Assembly (NCBI GenBank): GCA_036012755.1
Contig: DASCPX010000070.1
Coordinates: 128,001 to 192,000, forward strand
Reading direction: 5' to 3'
DNA: 64,000 nt
DNA from: Myxococcota bacterium
GTDB taxonomy: Bacteria > Myxococcota_A > UBA796 > CAJQPC01
How positions within the stretch are numbered: the stretch's first letter is position 1; the number at the start of each line of letters is the position of its first letter. This document shows positions 5,347 to 62,480 of the stretch, piece after piece. The position numbers and the translations under genes were made by a program. The notes beneath the pieces are model-generated. The model was not told where the DNA came from, did no database searches, and saw only the letters and a program-made list of their open reading frames with translations.

Positions 5347-5351
5347 GTCGC

Positions 5352-6671
5352 TCAGGTCCCAGAGAACTGCACCCCATCGAAGACCAGGGTCGGCACGCGG
5401 TAGCTCGAGTGCTTCCACACGTCGCTGGCGGGCTCGACGAAGCGGGAGATGAGGTCGATGAGGTTTCCCGTCACGTTCATCTCGCTGAGGTTCTGGGCCC
5501 ACTCGCCGTGGCGGTAGAGCTGGCCCCGGATGCCGAAGCTGAAGTCCCCGCTGGCGGGGTTCGAGTTGCCGCCGAGGAAGCTCGTGACTCGGATGCACTC
5601 GGGGTAGCTCGCGGCGATCTCCCGCCAGGAGCGTGGGCCGGGGGCGATGACCACGTTCCCGGCTCGCCCGGTCGTCGGCTCCACGCCGAGCTTGCGGGAG
5701 TGGTAGAGGCCGACGTACCAGGTGTTCAACACACCCTCTGTGAAGATGGGACGCGCGCGGGCGACGAAGCCGTCTCCGTCGAAGGGCTTCGAGCCGAGGC
5801 CACGCGGGATGGTCGGATCGTCGAGGACCGAAAAGGCGCTGGAGCCGAGCTTGTCTCCGAGCTTGTCGTGCATGCAGCTGCGGCCGTGATGAAGGGAGGT
5901 GCCAGAGAGCGGGCTCAACAGGGCGCCGAGGAGCCGGGGGGCGACCCGGGCGTCCAGCAGCATCGGGCAGACCGTGGAGGCGCAAGCAGAGGTGTCCCGG
6001 ACGGCCGCGGCGCGGGTCCAGAGGTCCTCTGCCACCGCGCTCATGGTCGGCAGGTCGTCGAGGTGGGCGGCGTTGATGAAGCTGTAGGCCTCTGGCAGCT
6101 TTCCGCTCGGCTCCTTCAGCGTCACCATGCCGCCGAAGCCGAAGTGGGTGCGCTCGGAGTGACCCTCGAAGCCGTTGCTGAAGGCGCAGTCGGAGCGATT
6201 CCGCATGTCCCACAAGAAAGCCGTGGCGGAGACCAGGTCGTCGCCGGCGCCTGCGAGCACGGCCTCCTCCAGCCGGGCGATGCCCCCTCGCCGGATCACG
6301 CTGTCTCGCCCGTCGAAGCTGGTCTCGTCAGCGGCGTCCAGGGAGGCGACGTCCAGGCTGCCCATGCGCTCCCGCGCGGCCATCGCCCGGTCGGGATCGG
6401 GCTCCAGGTAGCGGGTCCCGTCGACCGCCCGCTGGAGGAAGGCCTCGACAGCCTCGGGCCGCAGATCAGAGGTGCTGTGAGAGGAGAAGCGCTCGTCGAC
6501 CAGGAGGCTCACGGAGAGACCGAGGGTGCTGGCCTCGTGGACCCGCTCGAGCTTGCCGGCGCGACGCTCCAGCTCGACCTCGCTGCCCGAACGCACGTAG
6601 GCCTTGACCTCGTCGGCGCCCAGTCTCCGGGCGGTCTCGACCGCGTTGTTGGCCGTCTCGATCGGTGTCAT
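5352..6671 (-). CDS. pmbA: TldE/PmbA family protein
   Basis: SKPFDGDG, G+NPASGDFS motifs; ATGA-coupled downstream of tldD. Confidence 0.9.
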   Translation of the reverse strand: MTPIETANNAVETARRLGADEVKAYVRSGSEVELERRAGKLERVHEASTLGLSVSLLVDERFSSHSTSDLRPEAVEAFLQRAVDGTRYLEPDPDRAMAARERMGSLDVASLDAADETSFDGRDSVIRRGGIARLEEAVLAGAGDDLVSATAFLWDMRNRSDCAFSNGFEGHSERTHFGFGGMVTLKEPSGKLPEAYSFINAAHLDDLPTMSAVAEDLWTRAAAVRDTSACASTVCPMLLDARVAPRLLGALLSPLSGTSLHHGRSCMHDKLGDKLGSSAFSVLDDPTIPRGLGSKPFDGDGFVARARPIFTEGVLNTWYVGLYHSRKLGVEPTTGRAGNVVIAPGPRSWREIAASYPECIRVTSFLGGNSNPASGDFSFGIRGQLYRHGEWAQNLSEMNVTGNLIDLISRFVEPASDVWKHSSYRVPTLVFDGVQFSGT

Positions 6672-47804: not shown

Positions 47805-47860
47805 GTGTCCCTCGACACCGCCACGGGGGCGTGCCGCGGGTGTGGAGCGAGCCGGGCCTC

Positions 47861-47930
47861 GAGGCCCTTCTCGAGGAGATCCTCGTCGATGCAGAGTGGG
47901 AGGGCCAGAGCTTCTCGGGTCTCGAGGCCC
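47861..47930 (+). pseudogene. Degenerate partial copy of the 48080 gene
   Basis: EALLEEILVDA-EWEGQSFSGLEA versus EALLEEILVDA...DWDGQPYSGLEA. Confidence 0.6.
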
Positions 47931-48079
47931 AAGGCCAACTCGCTGCAGACCTGGAGGAAATCGACCTCCTGCCCTGGCTGCGAGGCCCCGCGGGAGCCGT
48001 CGCCCTCAAAGAGAAGCGGAAACGAAGAAGCGCTGAGCGGAGGGCGCGCCGGGAGGGCCGACGGCGTTAGGCGGTCCGG

Positions 48080-48382
48080 ATGGACCAGGAAGCCCTCCTC
48101 GAAGAGATCCTCGTCGACGCCTACCGCGACGCCGAGCAGATGGTGGCGTTCCACTGCGCGGTCAGCGAGCTGCCCTGGCCACGCGAAGCCCGACTCGGGG
48201 ACATGCCCGTGACCATTCATGGCGTCGACTGGGACGGCCAGCCGTACTCGGGGCTGGAGGCTTCGGTCCGCTACGAGGGCCACTCCTTCGACGTCCTCTT
48301 CAAGGGCCTCGTGTTCCCCGAGGGCACTCTCCATGCCCTCCACGTCGCAGCGCATCGGCGCTGGCTCGGGTTGGACACGTGA
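48080..48382 (+). CDS. CcbP-like 'calcium-binding' family small protein
   Basis: EEILVDAY...EQ..AF....LPWP, terminal AHRRWL. Confidence 0.65.
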   Translation: MDQEALLEEILVDAYRDAEQMVAFHCAVSELPWPREARLGDMPVTIHGVDWDGQPYSGLEASVRYEGHSFDVLFKGLVFPEGTLHALHVAAHRRWLGLDT

Positions 48383-48810
48383 CCGAGCAGAAGCTGGTCG
48401 AGCGCCTGCTCAAGGTCGAGGCGCTCTTCGCGGTTGCCGCGACCCCGGGTGAACGAGACGCGGCGGGGGCGGCGCTGGAGCGGATCCGGGCCCGCCTCGC
48501 CGAACTCGAGCGGGAGTCGCCTCCGGTCGAGTTCCGCTTCAGCCTGCCCGACCCGTGGAAGCGCCGCCTCTTCCTCGCGCTGGCACGCCGCTACGGGCTC
48601 AGGCCCTACCGCCGTCCTCGTCAGCGACGGCAGACCGTCATGCTCAGGGTTCCAGAGCGCTTCTTGGACGAGACCTTCTGGCCTCAGTTCGAGGAGCTGG
48701 CCCGGGAGTTGGAGGTGTGGCTCGACGACGCCACCACACGGGTGATCAGCGAGGTCGTGCACGCGGATACCGGCGAGGCAGCCGAAGTCAGGCAGCTCGA
48801 CGGGACTTGA
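48379..48810 (+). CDS. Hypothetical protein with DUF2786-like N-terminus
   Basis: KVEALFAVAATPGERDAA; LFLALARRYGLRPYR; GTGA-coupled. Confidence 0.7.
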   Translation: MTEQKLVERLLKVEALFAVAATPGERDAAGAALERIRARLAELERESPPVEFRFSLPDPWKRRLFLALARRYGLRPYRRPRQRRQTVMLRVPERFLDETFWPQFEELARELEVWLDDATTRVISEVVHADTGEAAEVRQLDGT

Positions 48811-48840: not shown

Positions 48841-50613
48841 ATGGATGATCTGCTCCTGTACACGTCGCCGGATGGTCAGGTCCGCATCGACGTCGTCTAC
48901 CAGGACGAGACGGTTTGGCTGACCCAGCGGCGCATGGCCGAGCTCTTCGGGGTCCAGGTGCCGGCCATCTCCAAGCACCTGAAGAAGATCTTCGAGTCCG
49001 GCGAGTTGGTAGCTGAGTCAGTTGTTTCCGAAATGGAAAGGACTGCCGCAGACGGCAAGGTCTACCTCACGCGCTTCTACGGCCTCGATGCCATCATCGC
49101 CGTCGGCTACCGGGTCAACTCGAGGTCGGCGACCCAGTTCCGGATCTGGGCCACCTCGACGCTGCGCGAGTTCATCATCAAGGGTTTCGTCCTCGACTCG
49201 GAGCGGCTCAAGAACGGCCCTCGGTTCGGAGCGGACTACTTCGACGAACTGCTCGAGAAGATCCGGGAGATCCGGGCCTCGGAGCGCCGCTTCTACCAGA
49301 AGGTCACCGACATCTACGCCGAGTGCTCGGTCGACTACGACCCGGCCGCCGACGTCACCCGGACCTTCTACGCGACAGTGCAGAACAAGATGCACTGGGC
49401 CATCCACGGCAAGACTGCGGCCGAGCTGATCGCCGAGCGAGCAGACGCCGAACGGCCGAACATGGGGCTGACGAGTTGGAAGTCGGCACCACGAGGCAAG
49501 CTCCTCAAGAGCGATGTCGCCGTCGCGAAGAACGACCTGACCCAGAAGGAGCTCGAGGAGCTGAACCACATCGTCGTGATGTACCTGGACTACGCGGAGC
49601 TTCAGGCGCGGAAGCAGCGGCGCATGGTCATGGCGGACTGGGCCGAGAAGCTGGATGCCTTCTTGCGCTTCAACGAGTACGACGTGTTGGACAACCCGGG
49701 CCGGGTCTCAGCGCACGTCGAGGAGGTCGGCGCCGACGAGCGCGCCGTCCTGTACGACGAGTGGGATGCGCGAGCGGGCCGCTACCGCAAGGGCTGGTGT
49801 CGGGTGTATCCGTCGGCGCTCCCGCCCGGCGGTGGTGCCTGGGCGCGCCAGACCCTGCCGGCCCATCGCCGGACCATCGACCGCCTGTACGGCCAGCTGT
49901 TGCGACGCCGGGACCGACTTCGGGCCCGCCCCCGCTCCCTTCACGGCGCGGACGTCGACGTGGACGCGCTGTGCGACGCGTGGGCCACCCTCGCGGCGCG
50001 GCGGAGTCCCAGTCCGCGGCTGTACGTCGAGTCGGCGCGGGTACGGCGGGACGTCGCCACCCTGGTGCTGCTCGACGTCTCCCTGTCGACGGACTCCTGG
50101 GTGGCGGACCGGCGGGTCCTGGATGTGGCGAGGGACTCCGTGTTGGTGCTGGGAGAGGTCCTCGACAGGTTGGGGGAGGAGGTCGAGGTGCTCGCGTTCG
50201 CCAGCCACACCCGCCACAAGGTGCGCTGTTGGACGGTGCGTGGGTGGGGCGAGCCGTGGTCGGTCGGTCGAGGACGGCTGTCGCTGCTCTCGCCCCAGGG
50301 CTACACGCGCATCGGACCCGCACTGCGCCACGCGAACGCACGCCTGGCAGCCAGATCGGAGACCTGCCGGGACCTCATCCTCGTGAGCGACTGCAAGCCC
50401 ACCGACTACGACCGGTACGAGGGGCGGCACGGCGTCGCCGATGTTCGGAAGGCGCTGGCCGAAGGCGCTCGGGTCGGCGTCCGGACGCACGCCCTCGCGA
50501 TCGACGCCGCCGCGTCGGGGTGGCTCCCCGCGATGTTCGGCGCGGCCCGTTGGTCGGTGCTGCCGAGCCCGGAGCGGCTACCGGACGCGCTCGTCCGCGC
50601 GGCGGTCCGATGA
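48841..50613 (+). CDS. In-frame chimera: RhuM-family protein (to about 49716) fused to the C-terminal vWA region of a NorD/CbbO-type activase
   Basis: RhuM: VWLTQ..MAELF, IIAVGYRVNS..ATQFRIWA, IRASERRFYQK. NorD: YDEWD....Y...WC.V, MIDAS LLDVSLST, GYTRIGPALRH, SDCKPTDYDRYEG. Confidence 0.85.
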   Translation: MDDLLLYTSPDGQVRIDVVYQDETVWLTQRRMAELFGVQVPAISKHLKKIFESGELVAESVVSEMERTAADGKVYLTRFYGLDAIIAVGYRVNSRSATQFRIWATSTLREFIIKGFVLDSERLKNGPRFGADYFDELLEKIREIRASERRFYQKVTDIYAECSVDYDPAADVTRTFYATVQNKMHWAIHGKTAAELIAERADAERPNMGLTSWKSAPRGKLLKSDVAVAKNDLTQKELEELNHIVVMYLDYAELQARKQRRMVMADWAEKLDAFLRFNEYDVLDNPGRVSAHVEEVGADERAVLYDEWDARAGRYRKGWCRVYPSALPPGGGAWARQTLPAHRRTIDRLYGQLLRRRDRLRARPRSLHGADVDVDALCDAWATLAARRSPSPRLYVESARVRRDVATLVLLDVSLSTDSWVADRRVLDVARDSVLVLGEVLDRLGEEVEVLAFASHTRHKVRCWTVRGWGEPWSVGRGRLSLLSPQGYTRIGPALRHANARLAARSETCRDLILVSDCKPTDYDRYEGRHGVADVRKALAEGARVGVRTHALAIDAAASGWLPAMFGAARWSVLPSPERLPDALVRAAVR

Positions 50614-51119
50614 GTGCCCAGGACGCGCTTGGCGCCGAGGAGCCCCTCGACCTCCTGATGGCCTGTCACGCACGGATCCGCCGGTACCTCGGCGGCATCG
50701 AGGCCCTGCTGGCCTTCCCGGACTGGAGCGATCCTCGGGCCATCGCCACCGCCCGGGACTGCGCCCACTACTTTCGCGAGGCCTTGCCCCTGCACGCCGA
50801 AGACGAGGACGCCTCCGTCGCGCCGAGGCTCCTCCGACTCGGACTCGGACCCGAGCTCGCTGCGACGCTCCGGCGCCTCGCCGACGAGCACCACGCCATC
50901 GACACGGGGTGCCTCTCGGTCGTCGCGGCGCTGGACTCGGTCGTGGCCGGGGGCCCTCGGACCAGCGCGCTCCAGGCGGCCAGCCGCCCCTTCGCGACGC
51001 TGCTGCGGTCCCACCTGGAGGTGGAGGAGCGCTCGGTTTTCGTGTTCCTGGACCGGCTCCCGGACGCAGAGCGTCCGGTCATCGTGGCCGAGATCCGGGC
51101 CAGGCGCGCCGGCGGATGA
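50610..51119 (+). CDS. Hemerythrin (HHE) domain protein
   Basis: LMACHARIRR, LHAEDED, DEH, HLEVEERSVF; ATGA overlap. Confidence 0.85.
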   Translation: MSAQDALGAEEPLDLLMACHARIRRYLGGIEALLAFPDWSDPRAIATARDCAHYFREALPLHAEDEDASVAPRLLRLGLGPELAATLRRLADEHHAIDTGCLSVVAALDSVVAGGPRTSALQAASRPFATLLRSHLEVEERSVFVFLDRLPDAERPVIVAEIRARRAGG

Positions 51120-51841
51120 CGATGCAGCTCACCCTCCAACACCTGGGCATGAGCGGTCTGCGCTTGACCCTGGACGAGGACAGCCTCTGCGTCGATCCGC
51201 CCTTACCGGTCGCCGATGACCCCGTCCTCATCACCTGGTCCGAGGCCGAGCGCGTCTCCGGCGTGGGTGGGGCAGGCGCCGTGCTCGCCGACCCCGACGT
51301 CCTCGACTGGCTCGGTGTGTCCGGCGTCCCCCTGATCCCGGACAGGCCCGCTCGATTCGGTGCTTTCGAGGTCGCTGTCCTGCCCTATCGCCCGATCCCC
51401 TACGCTACTCCGAGAGAGGCCCTGCGGAAGACCTTCATAGGGCTTCGTCGGCCCCATGTCGCTGCGCGACGGCTGGCGCACACCCTGTCCCGCCCCGCCG
51501 CACCACCCCTGGCCGTGCGCCTGGACTGGTCCGGTATGCGGATCGGTCTCTGCCAGCAGGCGCTGCATCGCTTCGTGACGCCCGCCGGCGCCGACGAGGT
51601 CCGGGCGTTCTTCGCCGACTGCCACGTCGCCATCGCCAGCCCGGACTTCGACGACGAAGAGGCGTGCGGTCGCATGCTGGGGGCGCTCGGCGCCCGCCGG
51701 GCCGTGCTGATCGACAGCATCGGTCCCGTCCGGCGAATGTTGGGACTGCCGACGCGGGCGCTGAGGGCGTCGATGGCCACGGCGCCACCCGGAACGCTCC
51801 TGCTCGAGGACGGCCAACGCGTCACGCTGAACCTCGCTTGA
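51116..51841 (+). CDS. Hypothetical protein, degenerate MBL-like fold
   Basis: LQHLGMSGLRL...LCVDP...VLITWSEAER (HxHxDH absent); ATGA overlap. Confidence 0.55.
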   Translation: MTMQLTLQHLGMSGLRLTLDEDSLCVDPPLPVADDPVLITWSEAERVSGVGGAGAVLADPDVLDWLGVSGVPLIPDRPARFGAFEVAVLPYRPIPYATPREALRKTFIGLRRPHVAARRLAHTLSRPAAPPLAVRLDWSGMRIGLCQQALHRFVTPAGADEVRAFFADCHVAIASPDFDDEEACGRMLGALGARRAVLIDSIGPVRRMLGLPTRALRASMATAPPGTLLLEDGQRVTLNLA

Positions 51842-51894
51842 TCAGCAGGCGGTCGTTCCGGACACGCGTCCGGACGGCGCGGGACCGGCTGGCG

Positions 51895-52032
51895 AGGCAT
51901 GGGACGAGTCGGGTGGACAGAGTATGAGTGCCCCATGCGCGACGAGCCGCCTCTTTTCCGGCCTCCGAGCGAGGCCCACAGCCTCATCCTCCAGGCCACG
52001 CTGGGCTGCAGCTGGAACAACTGCACCTACTG
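51895..52032 (+). repeat. Left direct repeat (attL-like): truncated 5' copy of the radical SAM gene
   Basis: Similar to 60746-60884; 51979-52032 is identical to 60831-60884 (54 bp); encodes MRDEPPLFRPPSEAHSLILQATLGCSWNNCTY-stop. Confidence 0.92.
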
Positions 52033-52084
52033 ATGGAGGCAAGTGATATCGGTGATTTGAGCGCTCGGTGTACCCGCAGGGCGG

Positions 52085-53299
52085 CTACTGCGAGGCCACC
52101 AGCGCCGGGTCTTCTACAGCCAGCAGCAGGTCGAGGCGCGCACGGGCGACGAAGCCCTCGAGCTGGACCACCGCAGCCTGGCCGCCCAGGATCTGGGCTT
52201 GGAGAAGGACGACCTGGATGAGGTCGATCTCACCGGCCACGTAGCCAGCCTCGACGCTCTCCAGGGCCGCCGCCGCCGCGGCGAGCGGGTCCAGGCCAAG
52301 CGCCGAGACCGTCTCCTGGCCGAGCTCGTCCCGCTGGCGGCTCGTCGCCACCTCGGTGCTGGCCACCGCCTCGGCCTCGACGACGTGCGCCTGGGCCGTG
52401 AGGAGCTCCCCCCGAGCGTCGGCCCGTCCGGCCTGGTTCCGGTTCCGGAGCGGCAGCTCCACCGCCAGCGACGGGCCCACCGTCGTGACCCCTCCATCGA
52501 TTTCCGCTCGCACCCCCACCACCAGCGGCGGAAGCGCCGCTGCCTGCTGGGCTGCGAGCTCGCGCTCTGCGGCCAACACCACCGCCTGCGCCGCTCGGAC
52601 ATCGCTGCGGTCCTCCTCCACGCCCTCGGACGGCGCGGGCACATCGATGTCCCGGGCCAGCATTCCGGCGTGGACCGGCATCGCGACCAGGGCGGAGAGT
52701 CGCTCCGCGGCAGCGGCCTCAAACGCACTAGCCTCCATGAGCCGGAGACCGGCTTCGGCCTGCGCCAGCCGCGCCAGGTTCACCTCGAGCTCAGAAGCCT
52801 CCCCTTCGGCTTCGAGCCGGGAGACGAGGTCCACGAGCCGGACGGCGAGTGCGAGGCCCTCGTCGGCCACCTCCGCGACCTCGATGGCGACGACGGCGTC
52901 GACGTAGGCCGTGCGCACGGCGTGGGCCAGCTCGAAGCGCGCCCGTCGGAGCTGGGCGTTCGCCGCCTCGACCCGGGCTGCGGCCGCCTGGCGTCGGCGC
53001 ATGCCTTCCCCCGTCAGGGACACGGGCCGGCTGAGCTGCAGCTCCGCAGGACCATCCACCAGCACGGAGCCCGACAACGTGGGGTTGGCGCCAAAGGCCT
53101 GGGCCATCTCGCCCTCCGCCTGCAGCAGGACCGCTTCCGCGGCCCTGAGCTCCGGGCTGGCCTCGAAGGCGGCCCGGACGGCCTCGTCCGGCGTCAGGGC
53201 CTGGCCTGCCCACCCCAGGAGGGGGCAGAGGAGGACGAGCACGAGGGTGAGGTGACGAAGCGTCTTGTGCATGGGGTATCTCGGCGTCGGCGAGGGCAT
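52085..53299 (-). CDS. TolC/CzcC-family outer membrane efflux protein
   Basis: EAVRAAFEASPEL, ANPTL, ELPLRNRNQ, GYVAGEIDLIQV; start 53299 or 53272. Confidence 0.85.
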   Translation of the reverse strand: MPSPTPRYPMHKTLRHLTLVLVLLCPLLGWAGQALTPDEAVRAAFEASPELRAAEAVLLQAEGEMAQAFGANPTLSGSVLVDGPAELQLSRPVSLTGEGMRRRQAAAARVEAANAQLRRARFELAHAVRTAYVDAVVAIEVAEVADEGLALAVRLVDLVSRLEAEGEASELEVNLARLAQAEAGLRLMEASAFEAAAAERLSALVAMPVHAGMLARDIDVPAPSEGVEEDRSDVRAAQAVVLAAERELAAQQAAALPPLVVGVRAEIDGGVTTVGPSLAVELPLRNRNQAGRADARGELLTAQAHVVEAEAVASTEVATSRQRDELGQETVSALGLDPLAAAAAALESVEAGYVAGEIDLIQVVLLQAQILGGQAAVVQLEGFVARARLDLLLAVEDPALVASQ

Positions 53300-53802
53300 C
53301 AGCGCAGCCCTCGAAGGAACTCGCGGGCGCCTGGCTCCGCCCAGGGCCTGGCCCCTTGGACGCGGGCGTCGAGCCGTCCCTGGGACACCACCCAGGTGTC
53401 GGGCAGGGAGCTCACTCCCCACCGCGCCGCTGCAGCGCCGGAGGGGTCGCGCACCACGACGGCGGGGACCTTGCCTCCGAACCAGGCCTCGACGACGGGC
53501 CAGGGCTCGTCCGTCACCGCGAGCAGAGGCACACCCTGCTCCTCGGCTGCGTCGATCAGCTCGGGCAGCTCCTGCTGGCAGGGAGCGCACCAGGTCGCCC
53601 AGAAGTGGACCAGGTGCGTGCCAGCCGGGACCAGGACGGGCTCCTCGCCCCGGGCGAGCTCGATCGACGGGGCCGGCCCGTCGACCGGGGCCCAGTCGAA
53701 GGGCGGGGGTGGGGCCCGAACTCGCTCGATCGTCCACCAGATCCCCACCAGGACCGCCTGCACCCCCAGGAGCGCTGCGACGAGTCGCGCCGTCCGTCTC
53801 AC
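53299..53802 (-). CDS. TlpA-family thiol-disulfide oxidoreductase
   Basis: N-terminal TM helix; VHFWATWCAPCQQELP; WGVSSLPDT; GTG 53802 overlaps the RND stop. Confidence 0.88.
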   Translation of the reverse strand: MRRTARLVAALLGVQAVLVGIWWTIERVRAPPPPFDWAPVDGPAPSIELARGEEPVLVPAGTHLVHFWATWCAPCQQELPELIDAAEEQGVPLLAVTDEPWPVVEAWFGGKVPAVVVRDPSGAAAARWGVSSLPDTWVVSQGRLDARVQGARPWAEPGAREFLRGLR

Positions 53803-56800
53803 CGGGACCTCGCGGTCAGGGTGTAGAGCACCGGGAGCACCAGCAGCGTCAGGGCGGTGGACGACAGCAGCCCTCCGATGACCACCGTGGCCAGGGGGCG
53901 CTGGACCTCCGCGCCGATGCCGGTGTTCAACGCCATCGGGACGAAGCCCAGCGCCGCCACCAGGCCGGTCATCAGCACAGGCCTCAAGCGCTCGACCGCG
54001 GCGCGCTCCACGGCCTCGCGCACCGGTACGCCGGCGTCCAGGTGGCGGCGGATCGTCGACACGAGCACCATGTCGGCCAGGACGGACACGCCGGCCAGGG
54101 CGACGAAGCCGATGGCCGCGGACACGCTGAAGGGCAGCTCCCGGAGCCACAGGGCGGCGACGCCTCCGACGGCGGCGAAGGGCACCCCGGTGAAGACGCG
54201 GAGCGCATCGACCACCCGGCCGTAGGTCGCGTAGAGGAGCAAGGCGATGAGCAGGAGCGCCAGGGGCACGACCACGAGGAGGCGCTCCCGGGCGCGCTCG
54301 TAGTGCTCGAACTGGCCCCCGTAGCGCACGAACCAGCCGGTTGGCAGCGTGACCTCGTCGCGGACCCGCTCCTGGACCTCGGCCACGAAGCCGCCGAGGT
54401 CCCGGTCGCGCACGTTGACCTGGACGACCAGGCGGCGGCGCCCCCACTCCCGCTGGATGGACGCGGGGCCCTCGGTCCGCGTGACCTCGGTCAGCAAGCC
54501 CAAGGGGAGGCGCGTGCCCTCCGAGCCGGTCACCAACAGCCGCTCCACCTGGTCGGTGTGCTGCCTCGCCTCCTCCTCCAGCCGCAGCGCGATCGGGAAG
54601 CGGCGCTCTCCCTCGAAGAGCTCCCCCACCTCGACGCCGCCGAAGGCCTCCAGCGCGAGCAGCACCGAGCTCGGTGACACGCCGTGACGGCCGAGAGTCT
54701 CGCGATCCAGCGCTGCGCGAAGGACGGGGAGTCCGGTGGTCTGCTCGACGCTGAGGTCCGCCGCGCCGTCGATCCCGCTCACCACCTGCTCGATCTGCAG
54801 CGCGATCTCGCGCATGCGCGTCAGGTCGTCGCCGAACACCTTGATGCCCAGGTCCGAACGGACGCCGGCGACCATCTCGTTCACCCGCATCTCGATGGGC
54901 TGGGTGAAGACCATGTTCATGCCCGGCAGCCCGGCCAGCTCCTCCTGCATCGCCGCGACCAGCTCGGACTGCTCGTCCGCCCGGGTCCACTGGTCGCGAG
55001 GTGTGAGCGTGATGAAGACGTCCGAGAGCTCGATGCCCATCGGATCGGTCGCCACCTCGGCGCTCCCGGTTCGCGTCCAGACGGCTTCGATCTCGTCGGG
55101 GAAGGCCTGGAGCAGGACCTCTTCGATCTCGGTCCCGTAGCGCACCGACTCGTCCAGCGAGACGCTGGCCAGGCGGACGGTGTTCACCACGACGGCGCCC
55201 TCGGACAGCCGCGGCACGAACTCGGTGCCCAGGCGGGTGGACAGCCACGCTGCGTTGAGCACCAGCAGCAGCGCCATCGCCAGGACCAGGCCCGGGTTGT
55301 CGAGAGCGCGCAGCAAGGCCGGGCGGTAGAGCCGCTGCGCCAGGCGCACCGCCAAGGACTCCCGGTCTGCGCCACGCGCCCGAACCGCCAGGCTCGTCAG
55401 CACCGGCACGAGGGTGAGTGACGCGAACATCGAGCCCATCAGCGCGAAGACGACCGTCAAGGCCATCGGGCGGAAGAGCTGGCCCTCGACGCCCTCCAGC
55501 GCCAGGACGGGCAGGTAGACCACCAGGATGATGAGCTCGCCGAAGAGCGTGGGCTTTCGGACCTCCAGGGCCGCGTCGCCGACCACCTGCACGGGGTCCT
55601 CGTCCGGGCGCTCGGCCAGGCGCCGCACAGCGTTCTCCACCTGGACGATGGAGCTGTCCACGACCAGGCCGAAGTCGATGGCGCCCAGGCTCATCAGGCT
55701 GCCTGCGATGCCCAGTCGCTCCATCAGAGTCCCGGCGAAGAGCATGGACACCGGGATGACCAGCGCGACGACGAAGCCCGCCCGCCAGTTGCCCAGGAAG
55801 ACGAAGAGGACCGCGATGACGAGCAGGGCGCCCTCGAAGAGGTTCGTGCGTACGGTGTGCAGGACCTGGTCGACCAGCCAGGTGCGCTCGTAGATCGGCT
55901 CGGCCGTCATCCCGGGGGGGAGGGATTCGGCCGCCTCCGCCAGCCGCACCTCCAGCCGCTCGGTGACGTGGGCGCTGTTCTCGCCCATCAACATGAACCC
56001 GAGGCCGAGGACGACCTCGCCCTGCCCATGGGCCGTCACGGCGCCGCGACGGAGCTGGCGTCCGTCGGTGACCTCGGCCACGTCGCGCACGCGGACGGGC
56101 ACGCCTTGGTGGCTTGCAAGCACGACCTCGCCCAGGTCGTCGAGCCGCTCGAAGCGCCCTGCTCCCTGGATCAGCGTGGTCTCGCCTGCGTCGTCGATGT
56201 TGCCGCCGCCGACGTTGCGGTTGTCCTGCTGCAGGGCGTGGAGCACCTCGTCCAAGGTGAGCTGGTGGCGGATCAGCGCCTCGGGCGACACCAGCACCTC
56301 GACGCGGCGCTCGTCCCCGCCCCAGGTGTTCACTTCGGCCACCCCTGGGACGGATCGCAGCTGAGGGGCAAGCACCCACTCCTGGGCTGTCCGCAGCTCC
56401 GAGACGGTGTAGTCCTCGCCGCGCACGAGGTAGTGGAAGACCTCCCCCAGACCGGTCGCCACGGGCCCGAGGGCTGGCGGGTCGACGCCCTCGGGCAGGG
56501 CGACGGTGCCGAGACGCTCCGCGACCACCTGGCGGGAGCGCCAGATGTCGGCGTCCTCGTCGAAGACCAGGGTGACCTGCGAGAGCCCGAAGCGGGACAG
56601 CGAACGCACCTCAGTCAGCTCCGGCAGCCCAGACAGGGCCTGCTCGACCGGCCACGTGATCTGGCGCTCGATCTCCTCTGGGGACAGAGCGGGCGCGGTG
56701 GTGTTGACCTGCACCTGCACCGGGGTCGTGTCGGGGAAGGCGTCCAGCGGCAGGCGCAGGAGCGCGATGACGCCGGCCAGACCCACCAGGGCCCAGGCCG

Positions 56801-56855
56801 CGAGCACGACGCCGCGGTGTCGCAGCGACCAGCGGATGACTCGATCGAAGAGCAT
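53799..56855 (-). CDS. czcA: CzcA/CusA-family heavy-metal RND permease
   Basis: DAFPDTTPVQV, SLGAIDFGLVVDSSIVQVEN, RLRPVLMT, GAEVQRPLATVVIGG. Confidence 0.93.
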   Translation of the reverse strand: MLFDRVIRWSLRHRGVVLAAWALVGLAGVIALLRLPLDAFPDTTPVQVQVNTTAPALSPEEIERQITWPVEQALSGLPELTEVRSLSRFGLSQVTLVFDEDADIWRSRQVVAERLGTVALPEGVDPPALGPVATGLGEVFHYLVRGEDYTVSELRTAQEWVLAPQLRSVPGVAEVNTWGGDERRVEVLVSPEALIRHQLTLDEVLHALQQDNRNVGGGNIDDAGETTLIQGAGRFERLDDLGEVVLASHQGVPVRVRDVAEVTDGRQLRRGAVTAHGQGEVVLGLGFMLMGENSAHVTERLEVRLAEAAESLPPGMTAEPIYERTWLVDQVLHTVRTNLFEGALLVIAVLFVFLGNWRAGFVVALVIPVSMLFAGTLMERLGIAGSLMSLGAIDFGLVVDSSIVQVENAVRRLAERPDEDPVQVVGDAALEVRKPTLFGELIILVVYLPVLALEGVEGQLFRPMALTVVFALMGSMFASLTLVPVLTSLAVRARGADRESLAVRLAQRLYRPALLRALDNPGLVLAMALLLVLNAAWLSTRLGTEFVPRLSEGAVVVNTVRLASVSLDESVRYGTEIEEVLLQAFPDEIEAVWTRTGSAEVATDPMGIELSDVFITLTPRDQWTRADEQSELVAAMQEELAGLPGMNMVFTQPIEMRVNEMVAGVRSDLGIKVFGDDLTRMREIALQIEQVVSGIDGAADLSVEQTTGLPVLRAALDRETLGRHGVSPSSVLLALEAFGGVEVGELFEGERRFPIALRLEEEARQHTDQVERLLVTGSEGTRLPLGLLTEVTRTEGPASIQREWGRRRLVVQVNVRDRDLGGFVAEVQERVRDEVTLPTGWFVRYGGQFEHYERARERLLVVVPLALLLIALLLYATYGRVVDALRVFTGVPFAAVGGVAALWLRELPFSVSAAIGFVALAGVSVLADMVLVSTIRRHLDAGVPVREAVERAAVERLRPVLMTGLVAALGFVPMALNTGIGAEVQRPLATVVIGGLLSSTALTLLVLPVLYTLTARSR

Positions 56856-56857
56856 GC

Positions 56858-58204
56858 CTACTCCACGTCGCAGCAGCCGGCGCCGATGCTGTCCTTGAGG
56901 GTCTCGGTCTTCAGCAGGAAGCTGCCCGTGGTGACGACGAGGTCGCCGACGTGTACCCCCCCGGCGATGCGCACGCGCCCACCCTCGCGGGCCAGCACGC
57001 GCACCCGTCGTGCGACGTAGACACCCTGCTCTTGCCGGACGAAGACCAGGTTGACCTCGCCGACGCGCTGCACCGCTGCCGAGGGCACGACGACGGCCCG
57101 AAGCGCGGTCTCGGCCAGCACCGTCGCCTGGCCGTACAGGTTCTCGCGCAGCAGCCCGTCGGGGTTGTCCAGGCCGACGCGGGCCCACACCGTGCGCGTC
57201 GCCGGGTCCACGGCGGGTGAGAGCATGTCGACGCTGCCGGTGAACTCGAGCTCCGGAAAGGCGTCGACGCGGACCCGGACCTCCTGGCCGAGGAGCACCT
57301 GCGGAAGCTGTCGCTCGGGCACGTCGATCTCAGCCCAGACCCGACTGGGGTCGACGAGCTCGAAGAGCGTCTGCTCGGCGGCGAGGGTCGCCCCCAGGCC
57401 GACGTGCCGGGCGACGACCAGCCCGTCGACTGGCGATGTGAGGACCAGTCGGTCGCCCTCGCCGGCCCCGGCCAGGCCCAGGCGGGCCTTGAGCGCGGTG
57501 ACCTCGCGCTCCGCCTCGGCCAACTCCTGCTGAGCATCCAGCAGGGACCGCTCCGAGCCCACCCCCGCCTCGAGCAGCCGGGCCAATCGCTCCACCGCAT
57601 CGGCCTTCACGTCCCGGACCTCACGCGCTGCGAAGAGTCCGGAGCGATGCTCCGCCACGTCGGCGCTCCGCAGCTCGGCCAGGATCTGCCCCGCGGTGAC
57701 GAGTTCGCCTTCCTCGGCCCCAACGCGAGCTACGACGCCTGCGTACCGGGCGCTCACGACAGCCGACCTGGTCGTGTCCCATCGGATGCGGGCGACCGCC
57801 TCGATGCCCTCGACCCAGTCGTGCGCTTCGGCCTCGACGGTCTCGAGGCCGGCCTGCTCCTCGACCTCGGGGCCGCGGAAGCGCACCAGGGTGCCGTCTG
57901 GCGGGGCGCCGTCGGTGCCGGTCGGCTGGACGGGTGGCCGCCCGCGCTCCTCGGGAGCACAGATCGGGCAGAAGGACTCGGGGAAGGCGTGCTCCTCGCA
58001 CCAGTCCCCCTTGGCCTGGAACACCGCGACGAGGCGTGGGTTGCACTTGGGGCAGACGGACTCCAGCACCCCGTGCTCGGCGCACAGTTCGGGATCGGCC
58101 GTGGCCGCAGCGGCGATCGTCCCCTCCTCCTCGACGGAGGGGGCGTCGCAAGCAGCCAGCAGCCCGATCCCCAGGAGGAGAACCCCCTGGAGACGGGTCG
58201 GCAT
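56858..58204 (-). CDS. CzcB-like RND periplasmic adaptor with two N-terminal Cys/His repeats
   Basis: LLAAC lipobox; CAEHGVLESVCPKC / CEEHAFPESFCPIC; SPVDGLV, VDPATRT, VVTTGSFLLK; terminal GCCD. Confidence 0.9.
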   Translation of the reverse strand: MPTRLQGVLLLGIGLLAACDAPSVEEEGTIAAAATADPELCAEHGVLESVCPKCNPRLVAVFQAKGDWCEEHAFPESFCPICAPEERGRPPVQPTGTDGAPPDGTLVRFRGPEVEEQAGLETVEAEAHDWVEGIEAVARIRWDTTRSAVVSARYAGVVARVGAEEGELVTAGQILAELRSADVAEHRSGLFAAREVRDVKADAVERLARLLEAGVGSERSLLDAQQELAEAEREVTALKARLGLAGAGEGDRLVLTSPVDGLVVARHVGLGATLAAEQTLFELVDPSRVWAEIDVPERQLPQVLLGQEVRVRVDAFPELEFTGSVDMLSPAVDPATRTVWARVGLDNPDGLLRENLYGQATVLAETALRAVVVPSAAVQRVGEVNLVFVRQEQGVYVARRVRVLAREGGRVRIAGGVHVGDLVVTTGSFLLKTETLKDSIGAGCCDVE

Positions 58205-58205
58205 G

Positions 58206-58514
58206 TCAGCTCCCCTCGGGGGGGCGCTCGATCTTCAGCTCCGGGTTGCACTGCAGGCACTGCGACTCGGGCAGGCTGTGCTCGGCGCACCAGTCCCCGG
58301 TCGCCTGGAAGGCGGGGACGAGGGAGGCGTCGCAGCGGGTGCACTGCGACTCGGGCACGGCGTGCTCGGGGCACCAGTCCGAGTGCGAACCGGGCACGGT
58401 GGCGTCACCGTGGGCCTCGGCGGAGGGAGGGGTGGCGGGGGTCTCGGTGGCAGGGGTGTCCCCGCCGCAGGCCACGATGGCCAACAACATCAGGGTGATC
58501 ATCTGGATCTCCAT
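58206..58514 (-). CDS. Small lipoprotein made of two Cys/His repeats, putative metallochaperone
   Basis: IVAC lipobox; WCPEHAVPESQCTRC and WCAEHSLPESQCLQC. Confidence 0.8.
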   Translation of the reverse strand: MEIQMITLMLLAIVACGGDTPATETPATPPSAEAHGDATVPGSHSDWCPEHAVPESQCTRCDASLVPAFQATGDWCAEHSLPESQCLQCNPELKIERPPEGS

Positions 58515-58560
58515 GCAGGTTGGGGTCGCTCCGCGAGGGAGCGGGGAGGATGCAGGGAGT

Positions 58561-58890
58561 TCAGGCGATAGGCGGCGGCGTCGGGGGTGGCCCGGTGGCC
58601 CGGGTTCGGTGCCTCGGCGGAACGGGGAGCGCGGTGAGCTCGCTGACCACCGTGACTCGGCGCTGGAGCGGGGCGCCCGCGACCGGGAGCACCATCGTGC
58701 CGTTGCTACAGCAGCGGCCCAGGTCGGTGTCGCAGCAGTCCGTGACTTCGGTCTCGCCGGGCTTGTCGGCCTTGGATGGACAGCAGTCCAGCGAAGCGCT
58801 CGCGCTCGGACCGTCGGGGTGTGCGGTCTCGATGCCCACTCCCGCCGTCAGCAGGAGCGCGAGCAGCGACAGCAGCAGCGTACGAAGCAC
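58561..58890 (-). CDS. Small Cys-rich leader protein of the efflux operon
   Basis: MLRTLLLSLLALLL signal; three CC pairs; terminal RATGPPPTPPP. Confidence 0.65.
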   Translation of the reverse strand: MLRTLLLSLLALLLTAGVGIETAHPDGPSASASLDCCPSKADKPGETEVTDCCDTDLGRCCSNGTMVLPVAGAPLQRRVTVVSELTALPVPPRHRTRATGPPPTPPPIA

Positions 58891-59085
58891 CGCGGGCAGT
58901 CTATCCCGACTCCTCTCGAGCACCAACTCCGGGGGGCCGTCGGCCTCGATCTCTTCCCGGAGAACTCGCGCCCGGGCGATGTCGAACAGCTGGCGTGGGA
59001 TTACGTCGACGAGCTGCACGGTGCTGCCAACCGGCTGCTGGACCCCGTCCTCGCTGGTCTCCGTTCCACGGGCAGGCAGTGGCTC

Positions 59086-59121
59086 TTGCACAAAACCAAA
59101 GCGTGACTTAAGTTTTGTGCA
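59086..59121 (+). promoter_or_regulatory. sigma70-like promoter with inverted-repeat operator of the abiE operon
   Basis: TTGCAC (59086-59091), 17 bp, TAAGTT (59109-59114); arms TGCACAAAAC (59087-59096) and GTTTTGTGCA (59112-59121). Confidence 0.75.
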
Positions 59122-59711
59122 TGTCAGAGACCCGTTCCGGCACGCGGGCCAGCCCCGATTGGGATGCGCTTCAGGACCTCGCCGTGGCCCAGGCCGGGTA
59201 CTTCACGACCGCACAGGCGGCGGAGCTGGGCTTCTCGCCGGAGCTCCTGCACTACCACTGCAGACGGGGGCGAATCCTCCGTGCGCGGCGTGGCGTCTAC
59301 CGGATTCGTCACCTCCCCGCGCAGGATGACGAACAGCTCGTCGAGCTCTGGCTCTGGTCTGATCGCCGGGGAGTGTTCAGCCATGAGACCGCGCTGGCGC
59401 TCTACGACCTGTCGGACGTCCTCCCGGCCCGGGTCCACATGACGGTGCCCGCGGGGTGGAGGAGGCGCCGACTCCGCGTGCCCGAGGTGCTTCGGCTCCA
59501 CTTCGCCGACCTGGCGGACGGAGAGCACCAGTGGGTGGGTCACGTACCCGTCACCGCGCCTGGGCGCACGCTTCGCGACTGCGTGGCCATCTCCCTACAG
59601 CCCGACCTGCTCCGCCAGGCGCTGGAGACAGGGCTCGCCAGAGGGCGCTTCGCCGATGGGGAGGTCCTGGGTGTTCGGTCCTACGTCGAGCACTTTGGTG
59701 AGGCGCGCTGA
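59121..59711 (+). CDS. Type IV TA antitoxin, AbiEi family
   Basis: QAGYFTTAQAAELG, RGVYRI, FSHETALALYDL, VPVTAPGRTLRD. Confidence 0.9.
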   Translation: MSETRSGTRASPDWDALQDLAVAQAGYFTTAQAAELGFSPELLHYHCRRGRILRARRGVYRIRHLPAQDDEQLVELWLWSDRRGVFSHETALALYDLSDVLPARVHMTVPAGWRRRRLRVPEVLRLHFADLADGEHQWVGHVPVTAPGRTLRDCVAISLQPDLLRQALETGLARGRFADGEVLGVRSYVEHFGEAR

Positions 59712-60664
59712 TGGCACGGACCTATGCCACCCCAGGTGCCTTCAAGGCGGCACTGGAGCAGCGCCTGCGCAGCCGCGCGGCTGGAGACGGGCTGGAGCTC
59801 CAGCGCCTTCGGCAGCTGCTCGTCTTCGATCGCTTCATGGCTCGCGTGGTGATGGAGTTCGAACAGGCCGTCGTGCTCAAGGGGGGTCTGGTGCTCGAGC
59901 TACGCCTTCAACGCGCTCGGACGACGAAGGACATCGACCTCCGTCTGCGGGGTGACCCCGACGAGGCCCTCAGCCGACTGCAGCGAGCAGGTCGCCGGTC
60001 GCTGGGCGACTACTTCGCATTCACGATCGTCCCAGATCCGCGCCACTCCACGATCGAGGCGGAAGGCATGAGCTACGAGGGGCTACGCTTCCGCGCCCAG
60101 TGTCGCCTCGCAGACAAGGAATATGGCAGGCCCTTCGGCGTCGATATCGCCATCGCGGAGCCCCTCGTCGCGACCCCGGACGTCATCGTGGGCGAACCAT
60201 GGCTGGAGTTCGCCGGCGTCGGGCCGGTGACGATGCAGGTGTACCCGCTCGAGGCCCACATCGCCGAGAAGGTCCATGCCTTGACGTTGCCACGTAGCCG
60301 CCCGAACTCGAGGGTGAAGGACCTCCCCGACATCGCCTTGCTGGCCACGATCCGCCCGATCGACGCCGAGTCCCTGCGCGCAGCCATCACGGCGACCTGG
60401 GAGCACCGGGGGACCCATCCGCTGCCGGCGATGGTGCCCGATGCGCCCCAGGCGTGGGAGCCGGTCTACCGGGAGATGGCGCGCGCCAGCGACCTGCGCT
60501 GGGCGACGCTGTCCCAGCTGATGGATGCGGTCAGCCGCTTTCTCGACCCCGTGCTCGCTGGAGCAGGCGGCGGGTGGGAGCCCGACGAATGGGCCTGGAT
60601 GGGGACCCCGGGCGAATCGAATAGCGAACAGCGGAAGGCGACGACCAGGAGCGCGCCTCAGTAG
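59711..60664 (+). CDS. Type IV TA toxin, AbiEii/AbiGii nucleotidyltransferase
   Basis: VLKGGLVLELR, RTTKDID, AEKVHA, NSRVKDLPD; TGATG-coupled. Confidence 0.92.
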   Translation: MARTYATPGAFKAALEQRLRSRAAGDGLELQRLRQLLVFDRFMARVVMEFEQAVVLKGGLVLELRLQRARTTKDIDLRLRGDPDEALSRLQRAGRRSLGDYFAFTIVPDPRHSTIEAEGMSYEGLRFRAQCRLADKEYGRPFGVDIAIAEPLVATPDVIVGEPWLEFAGVGPVTMQVYPLEAHIAEKVHALTLPRSRPNSRVKDLPDIALLATIRPIDAESLRAAITATWEHRGTHPLPAMVPDAPQAWEPVYREMARASDLRWATLSQLMDAVSRFLDPVLAGAGGGWEPDEWAWMGTPGESNSEQRKATTRSAPQ

Positions 60665-60745
60665 CGCGTAGTCACCAACCGAAGCCTTCGACCGTCCGAA
60701 GCCAACCATGTGTACACGCTGGGGAGCCCCTGGGACGGCGTGGGA

Positions 60746-60884
60746 AGGCATGGGACGAGCCGAGACGACAGAGTATGAGGACCCTCATGCGCTACGAGCC
60801 GCCTCTTTTCCGGCCTCCATCCGAAGCTTCCAGCCTCATCCTCCAGGCCACGCTGGGCTGCAGCTGGAACAACTGCACCTACTG
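60746..60884 (+). repeat. Right direct repeat (attR-like), forming the 5' end of the intact radical SAM gene
   Basis: Counterpart of 51895-52032. Confidence 0.92.
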
Positions 60885-61692
60885 CGACATGTATCGCCAG
60901 AAGCACTTCCGAATCCGGCCGGTCGAGGAATGCCTCGATGAGCTGAACGATGCTGCGCGCCGGGGCGGTCCGCAGGTCCGCAAGCTCTTCGTCGCGGACG
61001 GGGATGCTCTGGTCATGCCGCTGGAGTGCTGGGAGCCCATCTTGCGGTCCGCAGCCTCGGGCTTCCCCCGACTGAAGCAGGTCAGCTGCTACGCCATGGC
61101 GAGCAACGTGCTCGAAAAGAGCCCGAAGGACCTTCGTCGCCTCCGCGATCTGGGCTTGTCGCTGCTCTACATGGGCCCTGAGAGCGGGGACGAGACCGTG
61201 ATGAGGCGCCTTGCCAAGCAACCCCGCCCACCCGGAGCGCCGCGTGAGGTGGACTACCTGTACGACGCCCACGTCGAGGCCGCCCGCAAGGCCCACGAGG
61301 CCGGCATGAAGGTCTCCGCCATCTTCCTGCTCGGGGCGGGGGGCGTCGAGCGGAGTCGTGAGCACGCCCTCGGATCGGCCCGGCTCGCGACCGCGATGGA
61401 CCCCGAGTACCTCGCGGCGTTGACGCTCACGGTGGTCCCTGGCACGCCCCTGGCGACGACCCGGCACCGCCTCGCCTGGGAGCTTCCCGACATCTACGGC
61501 TTGCTCGAGGAACTCAGGATCTTCGTGAGCAATGCCCGTCCCTCGGACGCTTTGTTCCGGACCAATCACGCCAGCAACTACCTGCCGATCGGTGGGCGAC
61601 TCCCGCAGGACGGCCCGCGCATCGCCCAGGTCATCGACATGGCTCTGGCGGGCGAGATCCCCTTGCGGCCGGAGGAGGAGCGCGGCCTTTGA
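60787..61692 (+). CDS. Radical SAM protein (CX4CX2C variant); start 60775 or 60787
   Basis: FRPPSEA.SLILQATLGCSWNNCTYCDMY, FVADGDAL, YMGPESG, FRTNHASNYL. Confidence 0.9.
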   Translation: MRYEPPLFRPPSEASSLILQATLGCSWNNCTYCDMYRQKHFRIRPVEECLDELNDAARRGGPQVRKLFVADGDALVMPLECWEPILRSAASGFPRLKQVSCYAMASNVLEKSPKDLRRLRDLGLSLLYMGPESGDETVMRRLAKQPRPPGAPREVDYLYDAHVEAARKAHEAGMKVSAIFLLGAGGVERSREHALGSARLATAMDPEYLAALTLTVVPGTPLATTRHRLAWELPDIYGLLEELRIFVSNARPSDALFRTNHASNYLPIGGRLPQDGPRIAQVIDMALAGEIPLRPEEERGL

Positions 61693-61822: not shown

Positions 61823-62250
61823 TCAGTCAGCGTTCTTGACCACCCGAAGGCCCGTGTCGTCGCGCGTGTCGCCCGCATTCAAGGAGTTCCGATCTGCGAC
61901 CCGGCATCTCGACGGTGGGTAGCTGACCGCACCGCCCCGGCGACTCCGGGCCGATCCAGACGTCGGCCCCTCCGGGTCCACTGTCGGCGACTCGTCGTAG
62001 TAGTCGCTCGCGTAGTAGTCCTGGGTCCACTCGAACGCGTTGCCCGTCATGTCGTACAGACCGCATGCGTTGGGGTCCAGCCCCCCGACCTCGTGGAGCT
62101 CTCCACCCGACGTCGTCGGGGCCGCTCGCGCAGTCGGGATCTTCGCAGTCGAAGAGTCCGTCCATGTCGTTGTCGCTGCGGTCGACGCACTCGCCCGGGT
62201 CATCTCCCTCCGACTCGGCGCACGCGAGGACCAGCAGCAGCAGCCCGACC
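61823..62250 (-). pseudogene. Internally deleted FGE-sulfatase (SUMF1)-domain lipoprotein gene
   Basis: LLLLVLAC...DNDMDGLFDCEDPDC, then a frame change directly into the FGE C-terminus PNACGLYDMTGNAFEW...RGG...GLRVV. Confidence 0.7.
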
Positions 62251-62480
62251 TCTCCCTGTTCAGATCCGGGTCGAGTGTGTCTTGCCGAGGCCATCGGCGC
62301 GAGTTCCCAGCGTGGCGTCCCTTGGATCATCGCGCCCCGACTCCGGTCTGGCTTGCGCCCAGGTGGGTACCTGCGATGACCTCGCCGCCTTCTTCGAGAC
62401 CCACTGAAGAACGGGCAGCCGCTACGTGCGCGCGGCGAACGTGATCTTCTGGACCCCGTACGAGGAATAGCTCGAGAGCG

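Follow-up and report, generated by a model that had tools for sequence, protein, structure and literature searches.

Repeat and contents of the island

The stretch of DNA analysed here, called the window in what follows, comprises 64,000 nt of contig C70 (DASCPX010000070.1, positions 128,001 to 192,000) of a Myxococcota genome (GCA_036012755.1, here G000; 6.7 Mb, 96% complete). It holds an intact radical SAM gene of 301 aa (60787..61692, + strand; PF04055) preceded by an island of 8.85 kb, at the far side of which lies an orphan 5' fragment of the same gene (51935..52033, +), 32 codons long and ended by a TGA at the position of the third cysteine. This arrangement is likely to be one layer of an eroded tandem array, not a single island, and the initial annotation was likely correct in reading the repeat as the scar of an integration.

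The two copies of the repeat (51881-52032 and 60732-60884) are 87% identical over 153 nt and lie 8852 bp apart, i.e., the duplication first described as about 140 bp at a distance of about 8.85 kb is real and slightly longer; a third copy is absent from G000. Both end in an identical core of 54 nt (51979-52032 and 60831-60884), and codons 1-33 of the intact gene are contained in the right copy. As had been stated, identity breaks inside the third cysteine codon, after the TG of codon 33 (TGA in the left copy, TGC in the right one). The cysteine motif of this gene is CX4CX2C (C25, C30, and C33, counted from the ATG at 60787), the canonical spacing in radical SAM enzymes being CX3CX2C. Within the core there is also a TGCAG-N9-CTGCA inverted repeat, at a place where many relatives have TGCTCC, which we did not use as evidence.

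Eight of 20 listed public runs were compared with the window, all of them as contigs, in which rare forms are lost. The left core is bridged in runs X11 (51599-52104) and X15 (51788-52134), from two other studies that are not flagged as possible sources, which argues against an assembly artefact on this side; such an artefact was one of the outcomes that the initial annotation had held to be fatal to its proposal. No independent contig bridges the right core among the matches listed, and in run X5 the contigs break at both cores with an even depth of 10-14. The joints listed in the run contigs have sides of 20-35 nt and do not match the repeat.

The island begins with a cassette left end (52033..52078, +) shortened to a single box (52069-52075), recognised with a matrix of such ends (16.7 bits, see below). 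It is followed on the - strand by genes for an outer-membrane efflux protein (52085..53272, start codon inferred; PF02321), a redoxin/TlpA-like protein (53299..53802, approximate start), a CusA/CzcA heavy-metal RND transporter (53799..56850, approximate start; TIGR00914, 1125 bits, above cut-off), an RND periplasmic adaptor with a Cys/His-rich N-terminus (56858..58204) and two small Cys/His-rich proteins with no family match (58206..59091). An AbiEi-AbiEii type IV toxin-antitoxin pair comes next (59115..60664, +), and the island closes with a cassette right end (60663..60786, +) made up of a TGTACAC box (60711-60717) and a conserved leader. The GC content of the island is 0.71, compared to 0.69 for the contig. 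A czc cluster 75-78% identical to that of the island was seen in genome G002 (contig C37; L036 15884-20000 and L081 1-3447). AbiE pairs are present at or near the radical SAM site in five loci (window, L123, G012, G046, and G135), and a stabilisation of the island by its pair, as first suggested, is plausible. The pair of G135 (L064 2103-4305) is accompanied by a weak match to the C-terminus of the class-B integrase (see below), some 1-3 kb upstream of the intact gene.

The interval between the repeats had been described as free of recombinases, and our family and integrase searches bear this out: contig C70 has no match to PF00589, PF00239, or PF07508, to a class-B integrase profile or to a class-A integrase protein. 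Conjugation or mobilisation genes are lacking among the main open reading frames (ORFs) of the island (efflux, redoxin, AbiE, and small unassigned ones); the origin of transfer was not searched. Elsewhere in G000 there are eight PF00589 matches and one PF00239 match. On contig C138 a class-A-like integrase (4946-6055), 39% identical to that of G126, adjoins tRNA-like sequences read by eye. It is the one integrase of G000 that can plausibly be related to those using the site, and was considered as a helper for the island, a role that found no support.

Fragments, integrases, and cassette ends in relatives

The relatives examined belong to a marine order of Myxococcota, for which 154 genomes were available, 87 of them matching the first 38 residues of the gene. 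Orphan 5' fragments were confirmed in 13 of these 87, G000 included (seven of the 13 belong to the family), leaving out G008, with an 18-codon piece, and G130, whose piece ends at a contig edge. Throughout 22 fragments, from the 13 genomes and one metagenome, the breakpoint falls within codons 31-37. A universal stop at Cys33 was considered and rejected, as many of the 22 keep the cysteine. Four fragments are found on a single contig of G012 (C69), spaced 3.1, 10.9, and 4.4 kb, and two each on single contigs of G005, G002, and G018, with units of 3.1-10.9 kb between fragments; the contigs G012:C69, G005:C120, G018:C305, and G002:C37 give no match to PF00589 or PF00239. The initial annotation had proposed to look for other cargo at the same core, and different cargo is indeed there, including a cation ATPase, HTH-PIN, AbiE, czc, Schlafen, UvrD helicases, and a peptidase. 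In a sample of the phylum, 42 genomes of the order and 113 from outside it match the gene; at least two matches were present in 8 of the former vs. 2 of the latter, the figure for the outsiders being a match count only, at loci that were not inspected. All these counts are descriptive, since related genomes are not independent. The radical SAM site is a recurrent insertion hotspot, and the recurrent fragments, together with the conserved ends described below, support the original view of the repeat as an integration scar with a 5' end supplied by the element. In G008 a unit of only 0.8 kb with one HTH gene (L008 2397-3203) sits between the 18-codon fragment and the intact gene; here the crossover would be earlier than in the other arrays, possibly the work of a third recombinase.

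Fifty-six loci with an intact gene (flanks from none to 10 kb) were tested with three integrase queries, and a tyrosine integrase was found directly upstream of the gene in six, plus one remnant. These integrases are of two classes that show no mutual tblastn match. Class A (G002, G021, G126, and G090) is co-directional with the gene, and in most of its scars the match runs on for a few bases past codon 33. Class B (G012 and G005; 65% identical) is divergent from the gene. Ten relatives of class B were found at E<=1e-20 among 8000 candidates scored; when one class-B protein was searched against the genome collection, G012 and G005 were the only matches, and the viral collection contained neither a class-B relative nor a core-plus-box match. 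The adjacent integrases score far below the TIGR02249 (IntI) cut-off or do not match it.

The invariant catalytic residues of class B are R266, H353, R356, H379, and Y388. A structural model (pTM, predicted template modelling score, 0.43) has an N-terminal beta-sheet plus helix, with the Tn1549 and lambda integrases as best folds, and this N-terminus is a predicted arm-binding domain; domains of this kind are tied to arm sites in the available account (PMC8138268). The class-B element of G012 (L035/L034, G012:C20:1-39239) also carries VapE-like, Bro-N, QueC, FolE2, TGT-like, DndB-like, and helicase genes, and we take the QueC, FolE2, TGT-like, DndB-like, and helicase genes to be a 7-deazaguanine-type defence cluster. 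In two more distant relatives of class B (31-34%) the integrase gene begins immediately behind the 3' end of msrA (L096 715-2883 in G128 and L097 266-2271 in G079; msrA was confirmed by family scan in L096 only), which suggests a target switch to msrA within the clade.

A TGTACAC box lies within 120 nt after the fragment in 10 of 18 relatives' fragments, where 0.0017 would be expected per interval; loci L123-L125 were left out of this count, the box having been part of the pattern that found them. Similar boxes occur twice between the start of the class-B integrase and the gene, one of them inexact, in G012. On a matrix built from the ends of eight relatives the left end of the window scores 16.7 bits, near the bottom of the leave-one-out range (13.9-46.7), and the maximum of 20,000 random segments is 7.4. 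Most relatives' left ends have two boxes, vs. one in the window, where it reads TGTACCC, as in X5, X7, X8, and X11; X9, X12, and X15 have TGTACAC, an allele thus known from three studies with one contig each at a depth of 3.9-5.7. Position 52074 of the window is hence polymorphic (C/A) among marine samples, the change breaking or completing the box. The right end of the window matches those of integrase-free cassettes at 90/114 nt in G012 and 92/122 nt in L124. On sequence grounds, both ends of the island belong to the end family that accompanies the divergent class-B integrase, and the TGTACAC boxes are likely to be its arm sites. The leader of the right end likely supplies promoter and start. 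A foreign 5' end is most evident in G012, G005, and L124, where GC content at third codon positions (GC3) is 0.38-0.50 in codons 1-24 vs. 0.82-0.89 in the rest of the gene. A sigma-70 promoter scan of 58900-61000 gave 0 sites, so that the promoter role of the leader is only what we infer.

Origin of the island and of the left copy

A profile of the non-coding right end of the cassettes, built without window sequences, matches G000 at 60708-60783 (E 5.6e-9) and at 51862-51932 (E 0.0019), the next match having an E of 8. This second match corresponds to a leader with a degenerate TGTACAC box just before the left copy (51862..51934, +). Among all loci examined the profile matches only those with arrays (window, G012, L123, and L124), with no match at the genes of G001, G002, G003, and G007. 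Because the profile recognises its leader, the left copy was probably itself supplied by an element, as the right end, now worn, of an older cassette, which goes against its initial interpretation as the native start of the gene.

The genes to the left would be what remains of that older layer. A hemerythrin gene and a 241-aa gene (50610..51841, +; the second starting at 51116) are probable cargo. They are preceded by an ORF of 590 aa (48841..50613, +), in which the N-terminal part of a RhuM-family protein (PADLOC PDC-S05), cut near 49730 at a microhomology (junction 49715-49740), continues in frame into a C-terminal part that is VWA/NorD-like, the name NorD being our presumption; one X5 contig covers the fusion without differences. 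The RhuM of L125, 85% identical to that of the window, ends directly at a radical SAM 5' fragment, and in G001, of the same genus, a decayed RhuM abuts the intact gene. It would seem that a deletion took away a third repeat together with the left end of the older cassette (VWA/NorD-like piece, hemerythrin, and 51116 gene), G001 being the nearest thing to an earlier state of the locus. Two small genes further upstream (48080..48810, +) are probably older array cargo, the first having a 58% homologue just inside the left end of a G012 cassette. This first gene (48080-48382) and its neighbour at 47805-48070, which appears degenerate, are partly duplicated (39 nt, 82%).

Our preferred reading, to which we give a probability of roughly 0.6, is that the 8.85-kb block belongs to a tandem array, produced by tyrosine integrases inserting elements into the CX4CX2C codons, and is a cis-mobilisable unit left stranded there, the catalyst likely being the divergent class-B integrase. 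The attachment site of the element would carry the promoter and codons 1-33, and recombination in the conserved cysteine codons would orphan the old start on the left and join the new one to the gene on the right. Each new element would enter the rebuilt gene, shifting older units leftwards, and units might lose their integrase or stay behind when an integrase-bearing neighbour excises, an event after which an intact gene would again follow the AbiE-right-end module. In locus L123 the same module (87% over 1589 nt) precedes a fragment and another left end, the upstream cargo being different; this is the state expected before such an excision, and loss of the downstream element would yield the arrangement of the window. 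Deletions would erode the oldest layers, as in the RhuM-NorD fusion and the shortened left end.

Several observations weigh against this reading. The island is linked to class B by end sequence alone, and no class-B integrase was found in G000, where the class-B profile finds nothing but catalytic parts (best E 8.5e-11); at the radical SAM gene just two class-B elements have been seen (G012 and G005). The box is absent from 8 of the 18 relatives' fragments, and a 72-nt left-end profile has no match in G000 at E<=10. The czc cluster of G002 lies about 7 kb outside the outermost recognised fragment, with no left end beside it. No empty-site joint or circle joint appeared in the contigs of the eight runs, where rare forms are invisible. 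The right ends of integrase-free cassettes share with the autonomous class-B right ends a local match of 10-12 nt, little beyond the box, so that the cassettes may not derive from them by simple loss of the integrase. Finally, the GC3 contrast is weak in the window (0.75 vs. 0.87), so that the case for 5' replacement there rests on the shared leader. With no class-B integrase found in G000 and a shortened left end, the unit in the window is probably immobile at present.

The foremost alternative is a true lineage of non-autonomous cassettes, i.e., integrase-free units with dedicated ends that move singly with an integrase acting in trans and form an integron-like array, which we hold to be possible but doubtful. 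It would explain why one conserved integrase-free right end goes with various neighbours, AbiE in the window and L123 or HTH-PIN in G012 and L124, and why its conservation across genera (the values given above) equals or exceeds that of the coding gene body (74-80%), while it shows hardly any alignment with the right ends of the two autonomous elements. Along the same lines, the AbiE module is 87% identical to L123 and RhuM 85% to L125, vs. 71% for the radical SAM gene to L124 of the same assembly, although L123-L125 may not come from one organism. In G000 and L124, also, the neighbour of the intact gene is an integrase-free unit, and runs of three studies have an unbroken left box. However, the same geometry results from the excision of an autonomous neighbour, the left end is down to one of two boxes, there is no relaxase or helper among the ORFs of the island and no circle or empty site in the run contigs, and no two species were found to share an identical cassette. 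In its boldest form, which we offer tentatively, this would mean multi-gene cassettes with their own copy of the gene's promoter, its start, and its codons for the first two Fe-S ligands, moved by a borrowed integrase in an integron-like array where integrases of two unrelated clades came to use the same cysteine codons by convergence, each insertion or excision rewriting the promoter and N-terminus of the gene.

It is unlikely that the left copy and its leader are the native start, with a single island having integrated, copied the native leader, and later lost its integrase. In the window and in G012 alike, the leader motif with a degenerate box does stand ahead of the outermost recognised fragment, where a native start would be expected, but the profile is confined to array loci, and RhuM lies directly before the intact gene in G001 and directly before the fragment in L125. 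The 51116 gene gives no help to this explanation either. The initial annotation had predicted an empty site with this gene adjoining an intact radical SAM gene, and no radical SAM gene was present within about 1.5 kb in any of the 14 fetched loci with 51116 homologues (0/14). The two genomes of the same genus that were searched (73 and 100% complete) both lack a close orthologue, and on none of the contigs listed does such an orthologue occur together with the radical SAM gene; a more distant paralogue is on contig C18.

Homologous recombination, segmental duplication, or misassembly as the source of the repeat is highly improbable, given that the breakpoint recurs in the 22 fragments, that the non-coding ends are conserved and that the left junction is bridged in two other studies, even if C70 is devoid of recombinases and an identity of 54 nt can confuse short-read assembly. 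Among the origins first listed for the island (mobilisation in trans, homologous recombination, or decay), the second is unlikely.

Related systems and the radical SAM gene

The closest parallel that we found are the cis-mobilisable elements (CIMEs), described for the ICESt1/ICESt3 family as keeping attL and attR after the loss of integration and transfer genes and as accreting in tandem at one site (PMC5704250). As in this description, the island of the window has no recombinase and no mobilisation gene among its main ORFs and keeps attL/attR-like sites (the 54-nt core twice, a right end, and a shortened left end), and in relatives the newest integrase-bearing element adjoins the target gene (G012, G005, G002, G021, G126, and G090); G000 has no autonomous element adjacent to its array. 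Unlike the CIMEs as portrayed there, the integrase-free units have one conserved right end across genera, and the host is an uncultured Myxococcota. As for an origin by decay, they have the boxes in common with the class-B elements, with right ends otherwise unaligned.

Islands with dusA-associated integrases are reported to insert into the 5' end of a protein-coding gene and replace that end (PMC4482086). The island is not a member of this group, having another target, but would work alike: the 5' end of the target is replaced by the element with a remnant left at the far side and, in the class-B elements of G012 and G005 only (the window having no integrase), the integrase's 5' end adjoins that of the target. 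The initial annotation had called the target unusual for not being a tRNA; it is indeed no tRNA, but 5' replacement at a protein gene is already known from the dusA islands. The differences with that account are the target (a PF04055 radical SAM gene instead of dusA/dusB), the length of the identical core (54 nt vs. attachment sites of 19-28 nt), a second, co-directional type of integrase using the same site and the presence of arrays, the word "tandem" being absent from the main text of PMC4482086.

Radical SAM genes have been described as attB for the Streptomyces phages Samy and PhiJoe, the Samy target being spoken of as inactivated (PMC12924846), and an S. aureus Sa5-like prophage is said to disrupt its radical SAM target (PMC6036120). 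The kind of attB is the same, as far as these descriptions go, and the subfamily may differ; the Samy and Sa5-like targets are presented as inactivated or disrupted, whereas here the gene is intact. Integron arrays differ in that the spacers here are gene-start repeats between multi-gene units of 3-11 kb, with no IntI-grade integrase. In the literature we found nothing specific on this target in Myxococcota, although the TIGER/Islander target lists may already contain the site. Since cis-mobilisable remnants, accretion, and 5' replacement are each known separately, the surprise is limited.

The function of the radical SAM enzyme is not apparent from our searches, which gave no NCBIfam family above cut-off, one weak PDB match, and generic Atlas clusters only. 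Just downstream of the gene there is a formylglycine-enzyme-like gene split over two frames (61823-62330). The repeated repair of the radical SAM gene suggests that selection acts on the enzyme. Its gene offers a hotspot for defence and metal-resistance cargo in an uncultured marine order of Myxococcota, served by two uncharacterised tyrosine integrases with a predictable attachment site in a protein gene that leaves their target intact, and the array would represent tandem accretion working through 5' replacement.

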